This document shows positions 45,655 through 53,565 of a stretch of 59,307 bases of DNA, in pieces. Below the pieces are notes generated by a model. The model was not told the DNA's origin. It worked only from the letters and a program-made list of their open reading frames with translations, and ran no database searches. Source of the stretch: Candidatus Limnocylindrales bacterium (GTDB lineage Bacteria > Chloroflexota > Limnocylindria > Limnocylindrales > CSP1-4); the NCBI GenBank assembly GCA_036555445.1, contig DATBLH010000103.1, positions 1-59,307 of the forward strand. The letters run 5' to 3'. The position numbers and the translations under genes were made by a program. Numbering within the stretch: the stretch's first letter is position 1; each line of letters opens with the position of its first letter.

Positions 45655-47208
45655 TCAGCCCACCTGGACGAAGATCGAATGGTGGCCGCGGGCCCCATCC
45701 GGGATCGGTGGCGTCCGGTCCGCGGTCTGCACGACGCCTTCTCCGTCGGTTGCCCGGACCTCCAGCTGGTGGCGACCCGCGGTCGCCTCCCAGTCGAGCC
45801 GCCACTGGACCCAAGTCGCGTCGGAGATCGGCACCGAGAGCGCCGCCGGAAGCCAGGGTCCGCCATCGATGCTGAGCTCGACCCGTGAGACCCCACGATC
45901 GGGTGCCCACGCCACGCCTGCGACGGCGGTCCGACCGGGCGGGATGAATGTCCCGTACCGGGGCACGTCGATCCGCGACTGGGTGAGGATGGGCGCCTTC
46001 TTGGCCCATCCCCGGGGAATCCAGAACCCATCGAATGCCTCGAGGGTCGTGAGCTCCAGCTCGGCCAGCCACTTGGTGGCCGAGACGTAGCCGTATAGCC
46101 CGGGCACGATCAGGCGGGCCGGGAAGCCGTGCTCCATCGGCAGTGGCTCGCCATTCATCCGGAGCGCGATCATCGGCTCGCGGGCCGGGTCCATGACCCA
46201 GGCCGTGGGCATCCCGGCGGTCCAGCCATCGACGGATCGGCCGACGAGCTGGGTCGCACCGGCCTGGACCCCGGCCATCTCCAGGACCTCCCGCAGCCGG
46301 ACGCCGGTCCACTTCGCGTTGCCGACGAGATCGTCACCCACCTCGTTCGACACGCATGCGATCGTCACGTATTGCTCGAACTCGGGGAGTGCGGCCAGCT
46401 CGGCGAACGACAGCGTGGTCTCACGATCGACCATGCCGTGGATCCGGAGCTGCCAGGTGGCGACGTCGATCCTGGGTGTGATCAGGGCGGTGTCGATTCG
46501 ATAGAAGTCGTCATTGGGAACGACGATCGGGGTCAGGCCCGGAACGGCCAGGTCGGCGCCGCCGGGGAGCGTCGCAATCTCGGACGGCGGGGGCAGGCTT
46601 GCCCCCACGGCGGCCACGGCGGCCCGCTGCGTCTCGAGCAGGCGCCGGCCGGCGACACCGGCCACGGCCGAGGCGACCGCGAGGCCACCCGTGCGCAGCA
46701 GGAACGCCCGCCGGCTCCAAGCCGGCATTCCCGGACGGCCGGTGGGTGCGGACGGCATCAGCCACGCGAGGACGAGCGCCCCGGCGCCCGCCGCGGCCAC
46801 CGCCGGCAGGATCGACACCATCGCCGGTGAGCCCGCCCGGAGCGCCGCCAGGAAGCCGACGCCCGCGAACCCGGCGAAACCGGCAGCCGCTGCGTCCCAG
46901 TGGCGTCGCGCGAGGATCCCGAGCGCGGCCGCGATCGCAAGGGAGGCGAGGATGACGACGACCTCGAGGGCGAGCTTGTCGTTGGTGCCGAACAGCGCCA
47001 CGGCGACGTCCTTCGCGCCGGCAGGCTGGAGGTCGATGACCGTCTGGCCGACGGCCAGGAGGAGCGACGGCGCACCCGGCACGAGACCTGCGACGAGCTC
47101 CGACACCCCGAATGCCGCCAGGCCGGCCACGATCCCGACCAGGGCATCGAGGCCGCGTCCCGAAGGACGGACGCCCGGCGTGGCGACGGACATCGAGGAA
47201 CGACTCAC
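45655..47208 (-). CDS. Membrane-anchored molybdopterin-dependent oxidoreductase (sulfite oxidase family)
   Basis: N-terminal TM bundle, SRRAFL, FYRIDTAL, IACVSN, GNAKWTGV, HGFPARL.VPG.YGY.SATKW, C-terminal dimerisation domain. Confidence 0.92.
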   Translation of the reverse strand: MSRSSMSVATPGVRPSGRGLDALVGIVAGLAAFGVSELVAGLVPGAPSLLLAVGQTVIDLQPAGAKDVAVALFGTNDKLALEVVVILASLAIAAALGILARRHWDAAAAGFAGFAGVGFLAALRAGSPAMVSILPAVAAAGAGALVLAWLMPSAPTGRPGMPAWSRRAFLLRTGGLAVASAVAGVAGRRLLETQRAAVAAVGASLPPPSEIATLPGGADLAVPGLTPIVVPNDDFYRIDTALITPRIDVATWQLRIHGMVDRETTLSFAELAALPEFEQYVTIACVSNEVGDDLVGNAKWTGVRLREVLEMAGVQAGATQLVGRSVDGWTAGMPTAWVMDPAREPMIALRMNGEPLPMEHGFPARLIVPGLYGYVSATKWLAELELTTLEAFDGFWIPRGWAKKAPILTQSRIDVPRYGTFIPPGRTAVAGVAWAPDRGVSRVELSIDGGPWLPAALSVPISDATWVQWRLDWEATAGRHQLEVRATDGEGVVQTADRTPPIPDGARGHHSIFVQVG

Positions 47209-47280: not shown

Positions 47281-48582
47281 TCAGCGCGTGCCGAGCGCCT
47301 CGCGAGCCAGGACGTAGGCCTCGTCGTGGCGGCCCAGCGTGGCCAGGGTCTCGGCCCACGTTCCGAGGATCTGCCGAACGCGCGACGGCGGAGCCGTCTC
47401 CCGGGCAAGGTCCGCGGCCCGCTGGAAGGTTGCCACCGCCTCGTCCCCGTCGCGAAGTTCGGACAGTGCCCGGGCTCGGGTGACCAGGGCGTCCAGCAGG
47501 GCCTTCCGGTTCTCCGATCGCTCCGACAGCGCGATCGCCTCGTCGGCCAGCTCGAGACTCCGCTTCGCGTCACCCATCGCGAGCGTCACCGCCGCCTCGG
47601 TATCCGCGAGGTGCGCCGCCAGCCGCTCGTCGCCGCGATGGGCCGTGATGTCGCGCGCGCGGCGCACGACGTCGAGCGCCCGCGTGGCGTTGCCGTTGGC
47701 GAGATAGGCGAGGGCGAGGTGGTTCTCGACGAACCCGGCCTCGAGCTCGGACTCGGCGGCGCGGAGGAGGGTGAGCGCCTTGAGGCCGGTCGCGATCGCT
47801 CCCTCGAGGTCGCCGGCCGCGCGATAGGCCGTGGCCAGCGAGGCCAGGAACGCACCCTGGCGCCGGGCGTCCAGCTCGCCCGCCAGGTCGCGGGCCTCCT
47901 CGAGATAGCCGAGTGCCGCCGCCGCCTCGCCCTGGAACGACTCGACCATGGCGAGCGCGATCAGGAGCCGGGTCTGGAATGCCGCGTCGAGCTCGAGACC
48001 GTTGCGGGTTCGTTCGAGGACCGAGCGCAGCAGCCCACGGGCCTCCTCGGGGTTGTCCTGCATGTTCTCCGCGGACGCGAGGGTGTACTCGGCGCGGGCA
48101 CGGTCTGCCTCGCGGCCGAGCGCAGCGAAGGTCCGGGCCGCCTCGGACGCCGGCCCGATCGCCTCGCTCGGTCGGTCCAGCTTGCACAGGGTCTCGGCCA
48201 TCCCGGCCAGCAAATCTGCCCGGGTTCCTCGCTCCTCCGCGCTCTCGAGCAGGGCGAGATAGCCGTCATAGGCGTCCGTCCATCGACCGCTGGCCAGCGC
48301 GATGTCCGCCTCGAGCCGGGCCCAGGCGGGTCCGGGATCGGCCAGGATCTCCGCCGCCGTCGTCCCCAGCCGCGGCGCGAGGTAGTCCAGCGCGACCATC
48401 GACGGACGTGCGATGCCGTTCTCGAGGGCGCTGATATACGCCTTCGTGTAGCGGTCACCGGCGAGCTGCTGCTGCGTCAGGCCCGCCGCCAGACGCGCCT
48501 TGCGGATGCGCTCCCCGATCGTCCGGGCCAGCTGTCGGTCGTCGGTAACGACGCGGCGGCGCCGTGTTCGAACTGCGCTCAT
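47281..48582 (-). CDS. XRE-HTH + TPR transcriptional regulator (NprR/PlcR-like, RRNPP architecture)
   Basis: IGERIRKARLAAGLTQQQLAGDRYTKAYISALENG..RPS, followed by about 350 aa of TPR-like helical repeats; 433 aa. Confidence 0.88.
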   Translation of the reverse strand: MSAVRTRRRRVVTDDRQLARTIGERIRKARLAAGLTQQQLAGDRYTKAYISALENGIARPSMVALDYLAPRLGTTAAEILADPGPAWARLEADIALASGRWTDAYDGYLALLESAEERGTRADLLAGMAETLCKLDRPSEAIGPASEAARTFAALGREADRARAEYTLASAENMQDNPEEARGLLRSVLERTRNGLELDAAFQTRLLIALAMVESFQGEAAAALGYLEEARDLAGELDARRQGAFLASLATAYRAAGDLEGAIATGLKALTLLRAAESELEAGFVENHLALAYLANGNATRALDVVRRARDITAHRGDERLAAHLADTEAAVTLAMGDAKRSLELADEAIALSERSENRKALLDALVTRARALSELRDGDEAVATFQRAADLARETAPPSRVRQILGTWAETLATLGRHDEAYVLAREALGTR

Positions 48583-48880
48583 GGCCGGGATAGTACACCG
48601 CCGTCATCTCCCGGTTGACGCCGGCGAAGAACGCTTCCAGCGGCGTCCCGAGGCGGTCCAGGAACAGCACCAGTGCCGGGATGGACGGCAGGGTCCGGCC
48701 GTGCTCCACCGCCGACAGCAGCGCCTTGGACAGTGGCGCCGCGACCTCCGCCTGGGTCAGACCGTGCGCGTCCCGCAGACGCCGCAACTCCCCACCGATC
48801 GAGCCCGACAGGCCAGCAAGGGGCCCGCGCGTCGCCCGGACCCGTCGTCGTTGCGCAGGTTGATAAATACTTGACTTCAC
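48455..48880 (-). CDS. Small XRE/Cro-C1 HTH protein
   Basis: IGGELRRLRDAHGLTQAEVAAPLSKALLSAVEHGRTLPSIPAL...LG; 3' end overlaps the next gene by 128 nt; start uncertain. Confidence 0.7.
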   Translation of the reverse strand: MKSSIYQPAQRRRVRATRGPLAGLSGSIGGELRRLRDAHGLTQAEVAAPLSKALLSAVEHGRTLPSIPALVLFLDRLGTPLEAFFAGVNREMTAVYYPGHERSSNTAPPRRYRRPTAGPDDRGAHPQGASGGGPDAAAARR

Positions 48881-48899
48881 GACGGTGGCAGCCTAGCAT
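48871..48899 (+). promoter_or_regulatory. sigma70 promoter of the propeptide gene
   Basis: TTGACT (48871-76), 17-nt spacer, TAGCAT (48894-99), preceded by AT-rich TTGATAAATAC. Confidence 0.8.
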
Positions 48900-48953
48900 C
48901 CCCGCCGTTGCCGCGCCGTCCCCGGAGCGCGGAACGCGGACGGAGGACGCCCT

Positions 48954-49070
48954 GTGCCCACTCGACATCGGATCCGGCTGCTCGTCTCGACCGGTGTGGC
49001 GATGCTGCTCATCGCCGCGAACGCTTTGCAGGCACTCGCCGGTGACGGCAGCCCGCCGTTCCCGAAATAG
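48954..49070 (+). CDS. 38-aa secreted propeptide, candidate quorum-sensing pheromone precursor (not in the ORF track)
   Basis: GGAGG at 48942-46, GTG start; MPTRHRIRLLVSTGVAMLLIAANALQALA|GDGSPPFPK-stop, i.e. basic n-region, hydrophobic h-region and ALA cleavage site. Confidence 0.8.
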   Translation: MPTRHRIRLLVSTGVAMLLIAANALQALAGDGSPPFPK

Positions 49071-49088
49071 CAAGCTCAGGCAGACGCA

Positions 49089-49118
49089 CGTCGGCCGGCC
49101 GGTGACGGGCGGCCGACG
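49089..49118 (+). terminator. Stem-loop closing the propeptide transcript
   Basis: CGTCGGCCG...CGGCCGACG 9-bp stem plus CCG/CGG and a GTGA (GNRA) loop, 19 nt after the stop; no U tract. Confidence 0.6.
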
Positions 49119-49234
49119 AGTCTCTAGGACCGGGATCCTCGCGAGGGCGGCGTAGAATCGAACCGCTTGCCGACCCGCCGGCGACGGGCACGTTGTCCGC
49201 CGTCCGGGCCGCCGGGACGAATGGAGGCCTGCCG

Positions 49235-49633
49235 ATGAATGCGTTCGTCATCGAAGGCGACAACAAGCCGGGCGAGCTGGCCCGTATCACCGAGGCGATC
49301 GCCGATCGGGGCATCAACATCTCCAGCATCAGCCTGGGGACGTGTGGCGACCGCGGCACGGTCGCGATCATCTCCAACGACGAGTCGGGCACCCGGAGTG
49401 CGCTCGGTGCGGCCGGACTGACCTTCCACGAGACGGAGGTCGTCCCCGCCGCGCTGGCCGATCAGCCGGGCAGTCTCGCGCAGGCCACGCGCCGGCTGGC
49501 AGACGCCGGGGTCAACATCGAGGCGCTGATCCCGACCGGGATGTCCGGGGATCGAGTGACGGTCGCGTTTGCCGTCGACAAGGCCGATGCGGCGCGCACC
49601 GCGCTCGCGGAGTTCACGGCCAGCCGCGCCTGA
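49235..49633 (+). CDS. Tandem ACT-domain protein
   Basis: DNKPGELARITEAIADRGINI and DQPGSLAQATRRLADAGVNI; GGAGG RBS; TAGAAT at 49153-58. Confidence 0.9.
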   Translation: MNAFVIEGDNKPGELARITEAIADRGINISSISLGTCGDRGTVAIISNDESGTRSALGAAGLTFHETEVVPAALADQPGSLAQATRRLADAGVNIEALIPTGMSGDRVTVAFAVDKADAARTALAEFTASRA

Positions 49634-49706: not shown

Positions 49707-52529
49707 TCAGGGCGTCGGCGTCGCTCCACCACCCGCCGGTGGCTCGGTTGGCGTTGGCGTTGGAGCCTCGGTCGCGGTCGGTTCCGGCGTCGGCGTAGGG
49801 GGCTCCGTCGGCGTGGGCGTCGGACCCCCCGATGGCGACTCGGACGGCGACGGCGGGACCGTTGGACATGGAACCAGCGGCGGCTCCGAGCCGGACGGCG
49901 GCGGGAGGCTGAACGAGGGGACCACACCCGACGCGTCGGGCGTGGGCGGGGGCACGCAGGACGCGGAGGGCGATGGCGTCGCGCAGCTGCCGGATCCGAG
50001 GAGCGCCCCCCAGGTCCGCCCGTATGGCGCGTACCCGCCGTTGTAGAAGTAGCTCGTCCTCGTTCGGTCGGGCCCACCCGCGGTTCCCGGGCCCCGCCGC
50101 GCTCGTCGGATCCAGGCGCGGTCAGCCTCGAGCCAGTCGGCGTGGGCCCCCTCGAGGCTCATCTGGGACAGCAGGACGGCGTCCCCGCATTGCCCGCCTC
50201 CGGCGCCGACGCGTTCGGTTGGCTGCTTGTCGGTCAGGAACAGTTCCTCCACGGTCCGCAAGCGACGGCCGGGCAGGAGGCCCGTGAGGGCATCCACCTC
50301 GACCCGCTCGATTCCGCCCGGCATCGCGAAGTCGTTGATGCCCCAGGTCCGGGTGGCCTCGGTCATGAAGCCCTGCCACACGAACGTCGTCACGTCGATC
50401 GAGAACACCGGGTTGTTGGGTGTCGAGACGACCGAATTGTCGGAGTTGCCGTTCCAGGCGCCGGCGACGAGCGCGTACTCGCCGGCCTGCCGGCCCTCGT
50501 CGGTCGGGGGCGCGATGAAGCCGTAGGCGTTGAGATCTCGGGCGTCGTTGTTGGTTCCGGTCTTGAGGGTCGCGGGTCGGCGGTCGCCACCGCGGGCGCG
50601 CACCTCGAATTCGCCCCAGAACGGATTGATGTCCGGGTTCGTGTTGCCGGCCAGGATGTTGGTCACGATGGCGGCCCCCTGGGGTGAGATCGCCTGCTTT
50701 CCCTCGGGTGGCCGGTATGCGGGTACGACGTCGGTCCCCGCCGCGTCGGCGATCCGCAGGATCGTGGTATGGCCGATGTAGCGTCCGCCGTTGGCGATCG
50801 TCCCGTAGCCCGTGGCCAGGTCGACCGGCCGGACCTCCTCCACGCCGAGGGCGATGGCCAGGCCGGCATCCGCGACGCGTGTGCGGAACCGCAGGCCGAA
50901 TTCCTGTGCCTTCGCGAACAGGTGGTCCGTGCCAACCGAGGCGCCGGCCTTGACGGCCGGGATGTTGAGCGAGAACCGGAGCGCATCGGTGACGCGAACG
51001 GGACCGCGCTCGAGGTTGTCGGCGTCCGTCGGGCTGTAACCACCCCCGAAGTCGGTCGAGACGTCCATGAACATCGTGCCGGCGCTGAATGTGCCGTCGC
51101 TGATCCCCGTCGAGTAGATGAACGGCTTGAAGGCGGAGCCGGGCTGCCGCCATCCCTGGCTGACGACGTCGAACTGGGGCTGGAACCGACGATTGCTCTT
51201 CGTCGCGTAGTAGTCCGCGGAGCCCACGTAGGCGACGATCTCGCCGGTCTGGTAATCGAGGGCGACGAGCGCACCGTTCCGGATCTGCTTGTCGCGCAGG
51301 TTCGTCATCCACGGCTGGAGCTCGAGGCCGAGGCTGCGCGCCGCCTGTCTCGGGTTTGGTGAACGAGGGACGACCGCGGCTGCCTTGACCCACTTCTCCG
51401 CGATCCCCTGGAGACGGGCGTCCAGGCTGCTGGTGATCCGGAAGCCGCCTTCCTCGAGCTGGTCACAGGTGGCGGCGTCCGGGCCGCAGACCCGCGCCGC
51501 AAGCTCGTCCCGGAGCGCCCAGACGAAGTGCGGGGCCACCCACCGCGGCGTCACCTGCGGGGCCAGCAGCACCGGTTCGTCCATGGCCTGCTCGAAGTCG
51601 TCGGGGCCGAACTCATCACCGGTGAGCGGCGTCCGGCCCTGGCTCATCAGCTCCAGCACCTGGTTCCGACGCGCGATGATCGGCGCGTCCGGCGACACCT
51701 CGAGGTGGCTCTTCGGGCACTCCGCGTCCTCGGCCACGGTCGTGTCGCAGACCTCGATCGCGTTGCGCACCAGGTCGTACTCGGACGGCGACTGCGGAAG
51801 GGCGGCGAGAATCGCGGCCTCGGCCAGGGTGAGGTCGGCGATCGCCTTCCCGAAGTACGTCCGCGCGGCGGCCTTCACGCCATAGCTGTCATTGCCGTAG
51901 AAGTTCTGGTTGAGGTAGGCGGCGATGATCGCTTCCTTGCCCGGCTCACCCGGGTACGTCTCCGTCAGCCGGATCGACTGGATGATCTCCTTGAGCTTCC
52001 GTTCGACCGTCCGCCCCGGGTCCTGGACCAGGTCCGGCTCGAGGAGGCGCTGGCGGACCAGTTGCTGCGTGATCGTGGATGCGCCCCGGGCGTTGCCGCG
52101 CAGCGCATCGATCCCCGACGCGATGATGGCGGCCGGGTCGAAGCCCGCATTCGACCAGAACGTCTTGTCCTCGACCGCCGTCGTGGCATCCACGAGGACT
52201 GCGGCGTCGTTCAGTTCGTCCCACGTGGCAACGTCGCGTCTGAACTCGCCGAACCGTGCGAGCTCCTTGGTCCCTGTCCGGTCGTAGACGATCGACTCCT
52301 CCTGGAAGCGGATCGTCTCGAGCTCGGTCGGGTCGGTCAGGTCGCGGGCGAGGGCGAGATAGCCACCGACCACGGCGACCGCACCGAGCGCGCCGAGCGC
52401 GGCGAGGGCCGCGAACAGCACCAGGGCGGCCTTCGAGGCCGCCGAGGCAGGCGGTCGGCGGTCGTAGCCGCCTCCCATTCGTTCGTCATGGCGAACGCGG
52501 GCATCGGCGTTGTCGTAGCGGCCGGTCAT
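49707..52529 (-). CDS. Class A penicillin-binding protein (GT51 + transpeptidase) with Pro/Thr/Ser-rich tail
   Basis: TM anchor, EDKTF, GASTITQQL, RKLKEI, YLN..FYG; SxxK (GSAFK), SxN (SLN), KTG. Start is ATG52529 or ATG52541. Confidence 0.93.
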   Translation of the reverse strand: MTGRYDNADARVRHDERMGGGYDRRPPASAASKAALVLFAALAALGALGAVAVVGGYLALARDLTDPTELETIRFQEESIVYDRTGTKELARFGEFRRDVATWDELNDAAVLVDATTAVEDKTFWSNAGFDPAAIIASGIDALRGNARGASTITQQLVRQRLLEPDLVQDPGRTVERKLKEIIQSIRLTETYPGEPGKEAIIAAYLNQNFYGNDSYGVKAAARTYFGKAIADLTLAEAAILAALPQSPSEYDLVRNAIEVCDTTVAEDAECPKSHLEVSPDAPIIARRNQVLELMSQGRTPLTGDEFGPDDFEQAMDEPVLLAPQVTPRWVAPHFVWALRDELAARVCGPDAATCDQLEEGGFRITSSLDARLQGIAEKWVKAAAVVPRSPNPRQAARSLGLELQPWMTNLRDKQIRNGALVALDYQTGEIVAYVGSADYYATKSNRRFQPQFDVVSQGWRQPGSAFKPFIYSTGISDGTFSAGTMFMDVSTDFGGGYSPTDADNLERGPVRVTDALRFSLNIPAVKAGASVGTDHLFAKAQEFGLRFRTRVADAGLAIALGVEEVRPVDLATGYGTIANGGRYIGHTTILRIADAAGTDVVPAYRPPEGKQAISPQGAAIVTNILAGNTNPDINPFWGEFEVRARGGDRRPATLKTGTNNDARDLNAYGFIAPPTDEGRQAGEYALVAGAWNGNSDNSVVSTPNNPVFSIDVTTFVWQGFMTEATRTWGINDFAMPGGIERVEVDALTGLLPGRRLRTVEELFLTDKQPTERVGAGGGQCGDAVLLSQMSLEGAHADWLEADRAWIRRARRGPGTAGGPDRTRTSYFYNGGYAPYGRTWGALLGSGSCATPSPSASCVPPPTPDASGVVPSFSLPPPSGSEPPLVPCPTVPPSPSESPSGGPTPTPTEPPTPTPEPTATEAPTPTPTEPPAGGGATPTP

Positions 52530-52578
52530 CGGCGCCACCATGCCAGAAAAGCGCTGGGCGCGGTCCCCGAGCGCGGCG

Positions 52579-53565
52579 TCAGCCTCGCGCGGATCGCCAC
52601 AGGTCGTCCCAGCCAGCAAGTTCGGCGAGTCGCGCTCGACCCTGTCGGAACGCGGCTGCCTGCTCGCGACGGGCGGCCTCGGCGGTGCGCACGTCGACGG
52701 CGAGCAGTCGCAGCCGCATCCCGGGGCGCAGCTGGCCGAGCCGGTGGAGATCGGCCGAGATCGTGACGGCCGGGACCGGGTAACCGCCGGTCGGCTGAGC
52801 GTCGGCCAGGAGGACGATCGGGAGGCCGTCCGGCGGCAACTGGATCGTCCCTGGTACGACACCGTGAGGGCGCCGGTCCCCGGGCTCGCCCGGCATCGGG
52901 ACGGCCGGGCCTTCCAGGCGGAGCCCCATCCGGTCGCTCGCGGTGGCCACGGTCCAGTGGATCGCGGCGAGCCGATCCAGCAGCCCTGCATCCGGGCCCG
53001 GCAGCACCCGGATCGGCGCCTCGGCGATCGGTTCGGGATCGTGATCGTGGATCCACACGAGGCCGTCGGGCGCGTCACCCGGATCGCGGTCGGAGGCCAA
53101 CCGGTCGCCGGCCCGGAGCGGCCGACCGTCAAGGCCCCCGAAGCGCGCGGTGAGACAGGTCGATCGCGATCCCAACACGTCGGGCACATCCACGCCGCCG
53201 GGCAGGGCCACATACGCGCGGGCTCCCACGGCGTTCGCCGTACCCGGGAAGGCCACGACCTCGCCTGCCGCCAGGGCGTGGGACCGTCCGGTGGCCAGCC
53301 CACGACCACCGTGGACCGTGGCGCCCAGGTCGGTACCGGCGAGGCCGACCACGCACGACCGGAGCGCACGCAACGTGGGCCCGGCAACGGTGAGCTCGAG
53401 CGCTGCGTGATCCGGCTCGTTGCCGACCAGCAGGTTCGCGACCGCGAGCGACCACGGATCGCAGGCACCCGAGCGCGGCACGCCCAGGTGGCCGAACCCG
53501 AATCGGCCGCCATCCTGAATCGTCGTCAGGAGCCCAGGCTCCAGGACCTCGAACGCCGGCGTCAT
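52579..53565 (-). CDS. pxpC: 5-oxoprolinase subunit C (carboxyltransferase subdomain A/B)
   Basis: PGLLTTIQDGGRFG, SDRMGLRL, GTIQLPPDG.PIVLLAD.QPTGGYP; ATGA coupling to pxpB. Confidence 0.9.
   Translation of the reverse strand: MTPAFEVLEPGLLTTIQDGGRFGFGHLGVPRSGACDPWSLAVANLLVGNEPDHAALELTVAGPTLRALRSCVVGLAGTDLGATVHGGRGLATGRSHALAAGEVVAFPGTANAVGARAYVALPGGVDVPDVLGSRSTCLTARFGGLDGRPLRAGDRLASDRDPGDAPDGLVWIHDHDPEPIAEAPIRVLPGPDAGLLDRLAAIHWTVATASDRMGLRLEGPAVPMPGEPGDRRPHGVVPGTIQLPPDGLPIVLLADAQPTGGYPVPAVTISADLHRLGQLRPGMRLRLLAVDVRTAEAARREQAAAFRQGRARLAELAGWDDLWRSARG

Follow-up and report, generated by a model that had tools for sequence, protein, structure and literature searches.

A conserved propeptide gene beside an NprR-like HTH-TPR gene in Candidatus Limnocylindria: a candidate peptide-receptor signalling module

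The question raised by this locus is whether a helix-turn-helix (HTH) protein with tetratricopeptide repeats (TPRs) and a very short gene divergent from it constitute a peptide-receptor signalling system outside the Bacillota. The two genes lie in contig DATBLH010000103.1 of a Candidatus (Ca.) Limnocylindrales bacterium, of which we analysed a stretch of 59,307 nucleotides (nt), hereafter the window. An earlier note on this DNA had proposed a cell-cell signalling module of the RRNPP type, in which a 433-amino-acid (aa) XRE-HTH protein with TPRs and a second, small XRE gene on the minus strand face away from a 38-codon gene for a signal peptide with a nine-residue tail. All the features that it described were found at the coordinates it gave, and the open reading frames (ORFs) and Pfam matches agree with the arrangement. 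It had also taken the host for a high-GC bacterium outside the Bacillota, and the homologs are indeed labelled Chloroflexota or Candidatus Limnocylindria/Limnocylindrales. These labels, together with the survey of Chloroflexota genomes given below, led us to reject an actinobacterial host, which the GC content might have suggested. The GC content of the window is ~71-72% and flat along its whole length, which gives no sign of a mobile element. Genome-wide searches were run on the window genome, a 2.33-Mb assembly that is 79% complete, and conservation was assessed in 80 related loci (handles beginning with L) taken with flanks around receptor homologs.

The peptide gene and the forms of its product

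The 38-codon ORF, whose product is MPTRHRIRLLVSTGVAMLLIAANALQALAGDGSPPFPK, is a conserved gene. A relaxed tblastn search revealed look-alike ORFs opposite the receptor gene in most of the 80 related loci, and a hidden Markov model (HMM) built from 31 of these look-alikes matched 72 of the 80, always on the opposite strand and just upstream of the XRE/receptor genes, with no match away from this syntenic position among the ~700 kb of six-frame ORFs of these loci. With the divergent or shortened forms of L069 and L083 added by hand inspection, the gene is present in 74 of the 76 informative loci, the other four having been excluded as they come without upstream DNA. When the window sequence was left out of the HMM, the window ORF was found with E=1.7e-11 as the sole significant match among 38,400 ORF fragments of the genome. 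The earlier note had staked its proposal on homologs having a conserved adjacent propeptide, and this is kept in the loci just counted as well as beside paralogs and in a sister family (see below).

The ORFs matched in the relatives have 35-42 codons, and most of them start with ATG; across all signal-bearing peptides of the relatives, the range is 33-42 aa. Their conserved tail residues are encoded by varying synonymous codons (four for Pro, up to four for Gly and two for Lys), the stop codon is TAG or TGA, and the third codon positions of the gene show the most differences, a pattern of synonymous change that points to selection on the peptide as a protein. Public gene callers predict the orthologs as 'hypothetical protein', and the exact peptide sequence of the window is absent from the public protein collection that we searched. 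A few loci depart from the common form. The receptor gene is intact in L020 and L025 and no peptide ORF was detected upstream of it; in L020, a penicillin-binding protein (PBP) gene ends ~210 nt ahead of the receptor start. In L027 (2172-3620), the peptide ORF continues past ...ALAGGGNGP as a 480-aa frame, and the near-identical L039 terminates normally (...GGGNPPFPK); the run-on is likely due to a one-base indel, from either assembly error or recent decay.

The window propeptide consists of the signal peptide MPTRHRIRLLVSTGVAMLLIAANALQALA and, after a predicted (A/V)-x-A cleavage site, the predicted mature nonapeptide GDGSPPFPK, as the earlier note had read it. We scored the signal-peptide features by a rule-based check on 82 signal-bearing peptides, comprising orthologs and paralogs. 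These have a mean net charge of +3 over the first 12 residues, and their basic n-region is followed by an uncharged hydrophobic core of 16-25 residues. The cleavage site has A or V at -3 in 82/82 and A at -1 in 80/82; the cleavage-site picker preferred A and V, yet all 82 peptides provide such a site. The tails predicted to remain after cleavage have 6-13 residues with a mode of 9 and comprise ~70 distinct sequences, most of which consist of a Gly/Pro-rich stretch and then aromatic-Pro near the C-terminus, frequently ending in K, R or H. Tail types are clade-specific: GDGSPPFPK-like, (A/V)(S/T)GGGDFP(R/L)(L/R)(R/K), GDGPGPGLR, AETPYPH and the lipobox-like VAAC|SNGNGFP. The last, with a lipobox-like cleavage region and Cys at +1, occurs in L043, L053, L061 and L076, and L047 has a similar one (VMAC|TGGGDFPR); the mature 8-9-mer of such lineages might carry a lipid and be anchored in the membrane instead of being free.

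In one subclade, nested among the signal-bearing forms, the signal peptide has been lost and a 12-codon ORF with its own ribosome-binding site (RBS) remains, encoding the tail motif alone: MRSAHTGGGWPS in L086, L096 and L083, MRSATTGGGWPL in L090 and L098, and MQHVTNGSGFPA in L088. The retention of just the tail is expected if the tail matters to a cytoplasmic partner, and is hard to reconcile with an extracellular-only job. Such a 12-residue peptide would fit a receptor ligand, not a simple Sec-secreted signal.

The receptor candidate, its paralogs and a sister family

The receptor candidate has an HTH_3 domain at residues 26-65, followed by matches to TPR_12 (E=7e-18), TPR_10, TPR_14, TPR_2 and TPR_8, and is predicted to be cytoplasmic; the window genome has one copy. 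We modeled it with AlphaFold2 from an alignment of 23 sequences, which also served for residue conservation, and obtained a model (predicted local distance difference test score 87.5) with the HTH and then 18 helices, corresponding to ~nine TPRs. The family has >1,100 homologs of ~430 aa, the 120 best of which are 55-89% identical and of near-constant length, and the sampled loci reach down to ~48% identity. The recognition-helix region LTQQQLAGDRYTKAYISALENG is close to invariant, and Asn287, the Asn in a mid TPR (VENHLALAY) to which the earlier note had drawn attention, is invariant among the 23 aligned receptors.

For the HTH (residues 18-71), the best match in the PDB is PlcR, with E=0.002 for the single sequence and 1e-5 for the family profile, in keeping with the resemblance the earlier note had pointed out, and the second is ComR (1e-3, family profile). 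A Foldseek comparison of the whole model with the PDB gave apo NprR (5dbk_A) the top template modelling (TM) score among the best 50 matches (TMq 0.62/TMt 0.74 over 379 columns). For the fold check that the earlier note had proposed, this score is favourable; by E-value, NprR ranks 39th and the list is led by LGN/Pins and further peptide-binding TPR superhelices. By profile, the TPR region aligns weakly to RapH (2e-3) and NprR (7e-3), behind kinesin light chain. Membership of the NsdA family was rejected, the match of 42.7 bits being under the cut-off of 75. All RRNPP subfamilies except Rap have an XRE-type HTH effector domain at the N-terminus, and so does the receptor candidate. Its size and TPR matches agree with the RRNPP_detector signature of a receptor (250-500 aa, TPR models), and the size and Sec signal of the propeptide agree with that of an adjacent propeptide of 10-100 aa, for which the signature allows either a Sec signal or a short peptide of the PptAB type (PMC10075063). 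The hosts do not fit the usual RRNPP range of Bacillota or their mobile elements, as the relatives are metagenome-assembled genomes of Ca. Limnocylindria.

Among 401 genomes spread over Chloroflexota, 30 have a receptor match at E<=1e-30, all of them in the class Ca. Limnocylindria, and none was found at this threshold in the ~350 sampled genomes of other Chloroflexota classes. Nine genomes carry two receptor copies. In G142, G341 and G365, each copy has its own, different peptide, and beside the copies G142b, G341b and G293b the peptide gene does not have its usual divergent place upstream: it lies downstream and converges on the receptor gene. The tail types group by receptor clade on the receptor tree, paralogs included. 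By their conservation and arrangement, the receptor and peptide genes form one unit. The covariation of receptor and peptide that the earlier note had suggested as a check is significant (Mantel test of receptor against tail distances, rho 0.37, p ~0.002), but it is confounded by shared descent, so we do not count it as evidence for binding.

A sister HTH-TPR family, with 31-33% identity to the first and >560 members, all within the same class, has a propeptide gene of its own. In L102, L103 and L107-L109 this gene lies upstream on the same strand and encodes 38-41 aa with a Cys-bracketed tail (CDP...C), such as CDPLASQAGLC, CDPASAAAGLC and CDPNPSSPGFCG. The automatic pipeline of JGI labels some receptors of this family 'quorum sensing regulator NprR'. 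The genes directly upstream of the sister module differ: a BlaI/BlaR1-like pair (Penicillinase_R + Peptidase_M56) in L107, an ORF with an HExxH motif at the same place in L102, and an EamA transporter gene in L108 and L109.

The control region, the small XRE gene and the neighbours

The promoter, RBS and hairpin that the earlier note had ascribed to the 38-codon gene were all recovered (Table 1). The promoter is the sole sigma-70-like site in 48700-49250, where 0 are expected from shuffles, and its hexamers are conserved in 46 loci. In relatives, a CCTCC-like reverse complement adjoins the start codon of the peptide gene. None of 200 shuffles gave a hairpin as stable as the one past the stop codon, which was uncalled by a T-tract-based terminator scan because it has no T-tract; it is likely a terminator of the kind that lacks one.

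Table 1. Features of the receptor-peptide locus and its flanks, with positions in the window.
Feature	Position	Strand	Remarks
Molybdopterin oxidoreductase gene	45655-47208	-	Flanks the four-gene stretch on one side
Receptor candidate, 433-aa XRE-HTH + TPRs	47281-48582	-	ORF; Pfam HTH_3, TPR_12 and others
Small XRE gene, 141 aa	48455-48880	-	HTH_31, E=5e-11; first gene of the operon
AT-rich box	48857-48876		Candidate regulator-binding site; AGGTTGATAAATACTTGACT in the window, family consensus ATGTTTAGCAATACTTGACA; lies upstream of the -35 and overlaps it
Peptide promoter	48871-48899	+	-35 TTGACT 48871-76, 17-nt spacer, -10 TAGCAT 48894-99
Extended -10 of the XRE-receptor operon	48890-48898	-	TGCTAGGCT; 9 nt ahead of the GTG at 48880
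Shine-Dalgarno sequence	48942-48947	+	GGAGGA, 6 nt ahead of the peptide GTG
Propeptide gene, 38 codons, GTG start	48954-49070	+	ORF; HMM of relatives
GC-rich hairpin	49082-49123	+	12 nt past the peptide stop; -32.5 kcal/mol, z=-3.7
ACT-domain gene	49193-49633	+	Separates the peptide and PBP genes
Class A PBP gene	49707-53513	-	Flanks the four-gene stretch on the other side

The AT-rich box occupies codons 2-8 of the small XRE gene and is near-invariant in 46 loci, third codon positions included, with no synonymous drift. It is also retained in L051, L055, L058, L064 and L080, which have no XRE gene, and is therefore a DNA element. A similar box precedes the moved peptide gene, downstream of the receptor, in the rearranged paralogs, and a position weight matrix of the box finds a single site in the window genome, with a score of 31.9. 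The near-invariant string of the 46 loci as a whole is GATGCTAGGCT-N8-9-(A/G)TG-N5-6-GTCAA(G/C)TATTGCTAAACA, and read toward the peptide it gives the AT-rich box, TTGAC, 17 nt and TAGCAT.

On the receptor side, GATGCTAGGCT-N8-9-ATG/GTG is kept in most of the 46 box-bearing loci. An extended -10 (TGnTAGNCT) stands 8-9 nt ahead of the start codon in the window (48878-48898) and, where the XRE gene is absent, ahead of the receptor gene itself (group B, e.g. L071 3950-3979), a distance that suggests a leaderless mRNA. The -10 hexamers of the opposite strands overlap by 2 bp in the window (48890-95 and 48894-99), and the peptide and XRE-receptor promoters probably cannot be occupied simultaneously. 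In XRE-less loci, GGTCAAGTGACGCTTGCCA-N6-TGTAGACT-N8-ATG is found ahead of the receptor gene, and the apparent dyad there may be two back-to-back -35 hexamers. The peptide-receptor spacer of the group B loci is 165-190 nt long (e.g. L030 3797-3977) and holds the conserved strings GGACAATGACCCGTCGGTCC and GTACTTTCGG, which may be part of the 5'-untranslated region of the peptide mRNA.

The small XRE gene is present as the earlier note had stated, but it does not belong to the conserved core: among 63 loci classifiable for its presence, 37 have it (~105-175 aa in relatives) and 26 do not. In the window, its last 128 nt (48455-48582) also cover the receptor start, in a different frame, and an overlap exists in every XRE-bearing locus, ranging over 20-272 nt and typically 38-47 or 233-248 nt. 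It separates the peptide and receptor genes in the window, and these adjoin directly in the 26 loci without it. From this distribution, we regard the small XRE gene as an accessory partner.

The gene neighbourhood outside the receptor/peptide pair varies among clades, with PBP1 or NifU on one flank and IclR, DUF3090 or molybdopterin oxidoreductase on the other. In most loci, the peptide ORF is followed by a convergent gene, either PBP1 or NifU. The ACT-domain gene has a counterpart at the equivalent place in only L011 among the 80 related loci, which points to a recent insertion into the syntenic block.

What the locus may do, and known systems

We think it reasonably probable that the locus is a two-gene RRNPP-like peptide-receptor signalling module, joined in part of the class by the accessory XRE gene, and that it works through Sec export, cleavage, re-import, groove binding and altered occupancy of the box. 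The propeptide would be exported and then trimmed to ~nine residues (GDGSPPFPK), and the peptide would build up outside a cell without an outer membrane and return via an Opp/Dpp-type permease. Within the cell, it would bind the concave groove of the TPR superhelix, with Asn287 and further polar residues of the A helices, all of them invariant, as candidate contacts, and the binding would alter the occupancy of the box by the HTH dimer. The window genome encodes SBP_bac_5, Opp/Dpp ATPases and signal peptidase I, a set permissive for export and import, and no Omp85/BamA was found in its 79%-complete assembly, consistent with a cell without an outer membrane. Relative to the peptide promoter, the box of the window would lie at about -37 to -55; on the leaderless XRE-receptor transcript, it would span +5 to +24. 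Given this position and the overlapping -10 hexamers, one binding event could raise peptide transcription and lower that of the receptor operon, acting as a switch.

Several findings weigh against a signalling module of this kind. No RRNPP-specific Pfam or NCBIfam model matches the receptor at E<=0.01, and generic TPR proteins (LGN, kinesin light chain) beat NprR by E-value, so what we have is a likeness to RRNPP and not a proof of common descent; as far as the structural model goes, the receptor is built and would work like an NprR-type receptor, by likeness and not by demonstrated descent from the RRNPP families. The tail-receptor correlation (rho 0.37) is expected from co-inheritance alone. 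The receptor family is vertically inherited and mostly single-copy, with limited divergence and a C-terminal peptide motif that varies little, in contrast to RRNPP systems, whose pherotypes typically turn over fast. In the signal-less subclade, either another exporter or action inside the cell would be needed, and no output regulon can be named since the box occurs once in the genome. The cell-cell signalling module of the earlier note is partly supported: the conserved propeptide, the PlcR-like HTH, the invariant Asn287 and the TM score of NprR speak for it, and it is weakened by an XRE gene outside the core, the lack of an RRNPP family model, the better E-values of generic TPR proteins and the signal-less subclade.

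A plain regulator-target pair would account equally well for the adjacency of the genes, the promoter region that they share and the conservation of the box. In such a pair, the HTH-TPR protein controls the small gene, the peptide is secreted or anchored in the membrane and has an envelope, adhesion, antimicrobial or other-sensor job, and the TPRs bind some other partner. We hold this to be possible but rather doubtful. It gains from the class A PBP gene that the locus adjoins in the 17 closest loci, from co-divergence that follows from co-inheritance and from the lack of a match to any RRNPP family model; however, the neighbourhood outside the pair is not conserved among clades, the tail-only, signal-less forms are hard to square with an extracellular function, and the pairing survives duplication and rearrangement and recurs in the sister family with an unrelated peptide. 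The same 12-codon ORFs, with their own RBS and nested among signal-bearing clades, lend themselves to a private intracellular micropeptide switch, where the tail would be an anti-repressor or co-activator in the producing cell and secretion would dispose of the peptide or titrate it, with no quorum sensing. The cytoplasmic location of the receptor agrees with this, and pherotype divergence is made less likely by the strong conservation of the peptide C-terminus and by the receptor being single-copy. We nonetheless judge such a switch improbable: 82 peptides show clear constraint on both the Sec signal and the A-x-A site, and such constraint would serve no purpose in a ligand that stays in the cytoplasm; moreover, in known RRNPP systems, short peptides that lack a Sec signal leave the cell through dedicated transporters (SHP and ComS via PptAB; PMC10075063).

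There is very little to be said for a chance ORF or a cis-acting leader peptide. Stops are rare at this GC content and spurious ORFs many, the window gene starts with GTG, and its exact product is not in public proteins; yet the conservation is position-specific and at the protein level, the length is constant across 74 loci, most of these have ATG, and the orthologs are called publicly. The syntenic HMM matches, the E=1.7e-11 obtained with the window sequence left out and the pattern of synonymous codons led us to reject a chance ORF. A translation-arrest or leader peptide of the SecM, MifM or TnaC type was rejected likewise, as most loci have no co-oriented cistron downstream of the ORF and a hairpin follows it. 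A precursor of a ribosomally synthesised and post-translationally modified peptide was dismissed too: the Pfam-annotated neighbourhoods of two clades contain no conserved modifying enzyme or transporter, and the N-terminus is a Sec signal.

To our knowledge, peptide quorum sensing with a cytoplasmic receptor has so far been described for Bacillota, their phages and plasmids. Full-text literature searches turned up nothing that connects RRNPP systems to Chloroflexota or Limnocylindria, the RRNPP_detector survey covered only Firmicutes and viruses (PMC10075063), and the sole prior hint is the automatic 'NprR' label on some sister-family proteins. A bolder proposal, which we put forward tentatively and would ourselves bet against, is that TPR-receptor/propeptide quorum sensing extends beyond the Bacillota to a class of monoderm Chloroflexota, with at least two vertically inherited families and with lipobox and signal-less derivatives, so that the RRNPP principle would either date from the early Terrabacteria or have arisen at least twice. 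The tail of the first family would then be linear, ending in aromatic-Pro-Lys/Arg, and that of the second Cys-bracketed and probably disulfide-cyclised. Limnocylindria abound in soils and lakes and are uncultured. If the proposal is true, a class-wide module would be the first handle on their social behaviour, testable with synthetic peptide, and could aid cultivation by way of growth or dormancy switches that depend on the peptide. The variants found in nature (Sec-secreted, lipobox, signal-less, rearranged in order, with and without XRE) are a ready set for evolution studies, and the overlapping, leaderless divergent promoters sharing one box are a compact switch design that deserves characterisation.

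Among known systems, the generic TPR proteins LGN/Pins and kinesin light chain, which have the best Foldseek and profile E-values, are eukaryotic scaffolds without an HTH and have no functional relation to the receptor, and their TM scores are 0.38-0.61 compared with 0.74 for NprR. They do bind extended peptides in a concave channel, which supports a peptide-binding groove in the receptor. PlcR/PapR provides the nearest HTH in the PDB. PapR is exported through Sec, Opp takes its C-terminal heptapeptide back up, and papR is positively autoregulated via a box that precedes the promoter. PlcR differs in having five TPRs in 285 aa, and the TPR region does not align here (a second stretch is not significant); moreover, papR lies downstream on the same strand, and the box of PlcR, TATGNAN4TNCATA, bears no relation to that of the locus.

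Rgg/SHP of streptococci and PrgX/PrgQ of pCF10 share the layout of the locus: the peptide gene and the gene of an HTH-repeat receptor diverge from a short control region common to both, in which the box of the regulator and the peptide promoter overlap. The functional part of the peptide is formed by the C-terminal 8-9 residues. Short signal-less forms occur there as well, comparable to the 12-codon ORFs. The precursors of SHP and iCF10 are not Sec substrates and use PptAB and Eep (PMC10075063), whereas a canonical Sec signal with A-x-A is found in most peptides of the present loci. The repeats of Rgg and PrgX are degenerate and shorter, and both systems lack a leaderless operon and an additional XRE gene.

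Globally, the structure that matches the model best is NprR, from the NprR/NprX system of the Bacillus cereus group. The receptors are alike in size and plan, with an XRE-HTH and then ~nine TPRs, the weak profile match to NprR spans 220 residues of the TPR region, and NprX is also a Sec-dependent propeptide with a short C-terminal mature peptide. The gene order differs, nprX being downstream on the same strand and the peptide gene here upstream and divergent, as does the phylum, and there is no significant sequence-family membership. NprR also binds Spo0F, and nothing in the locus indicates such a role for the receptor.

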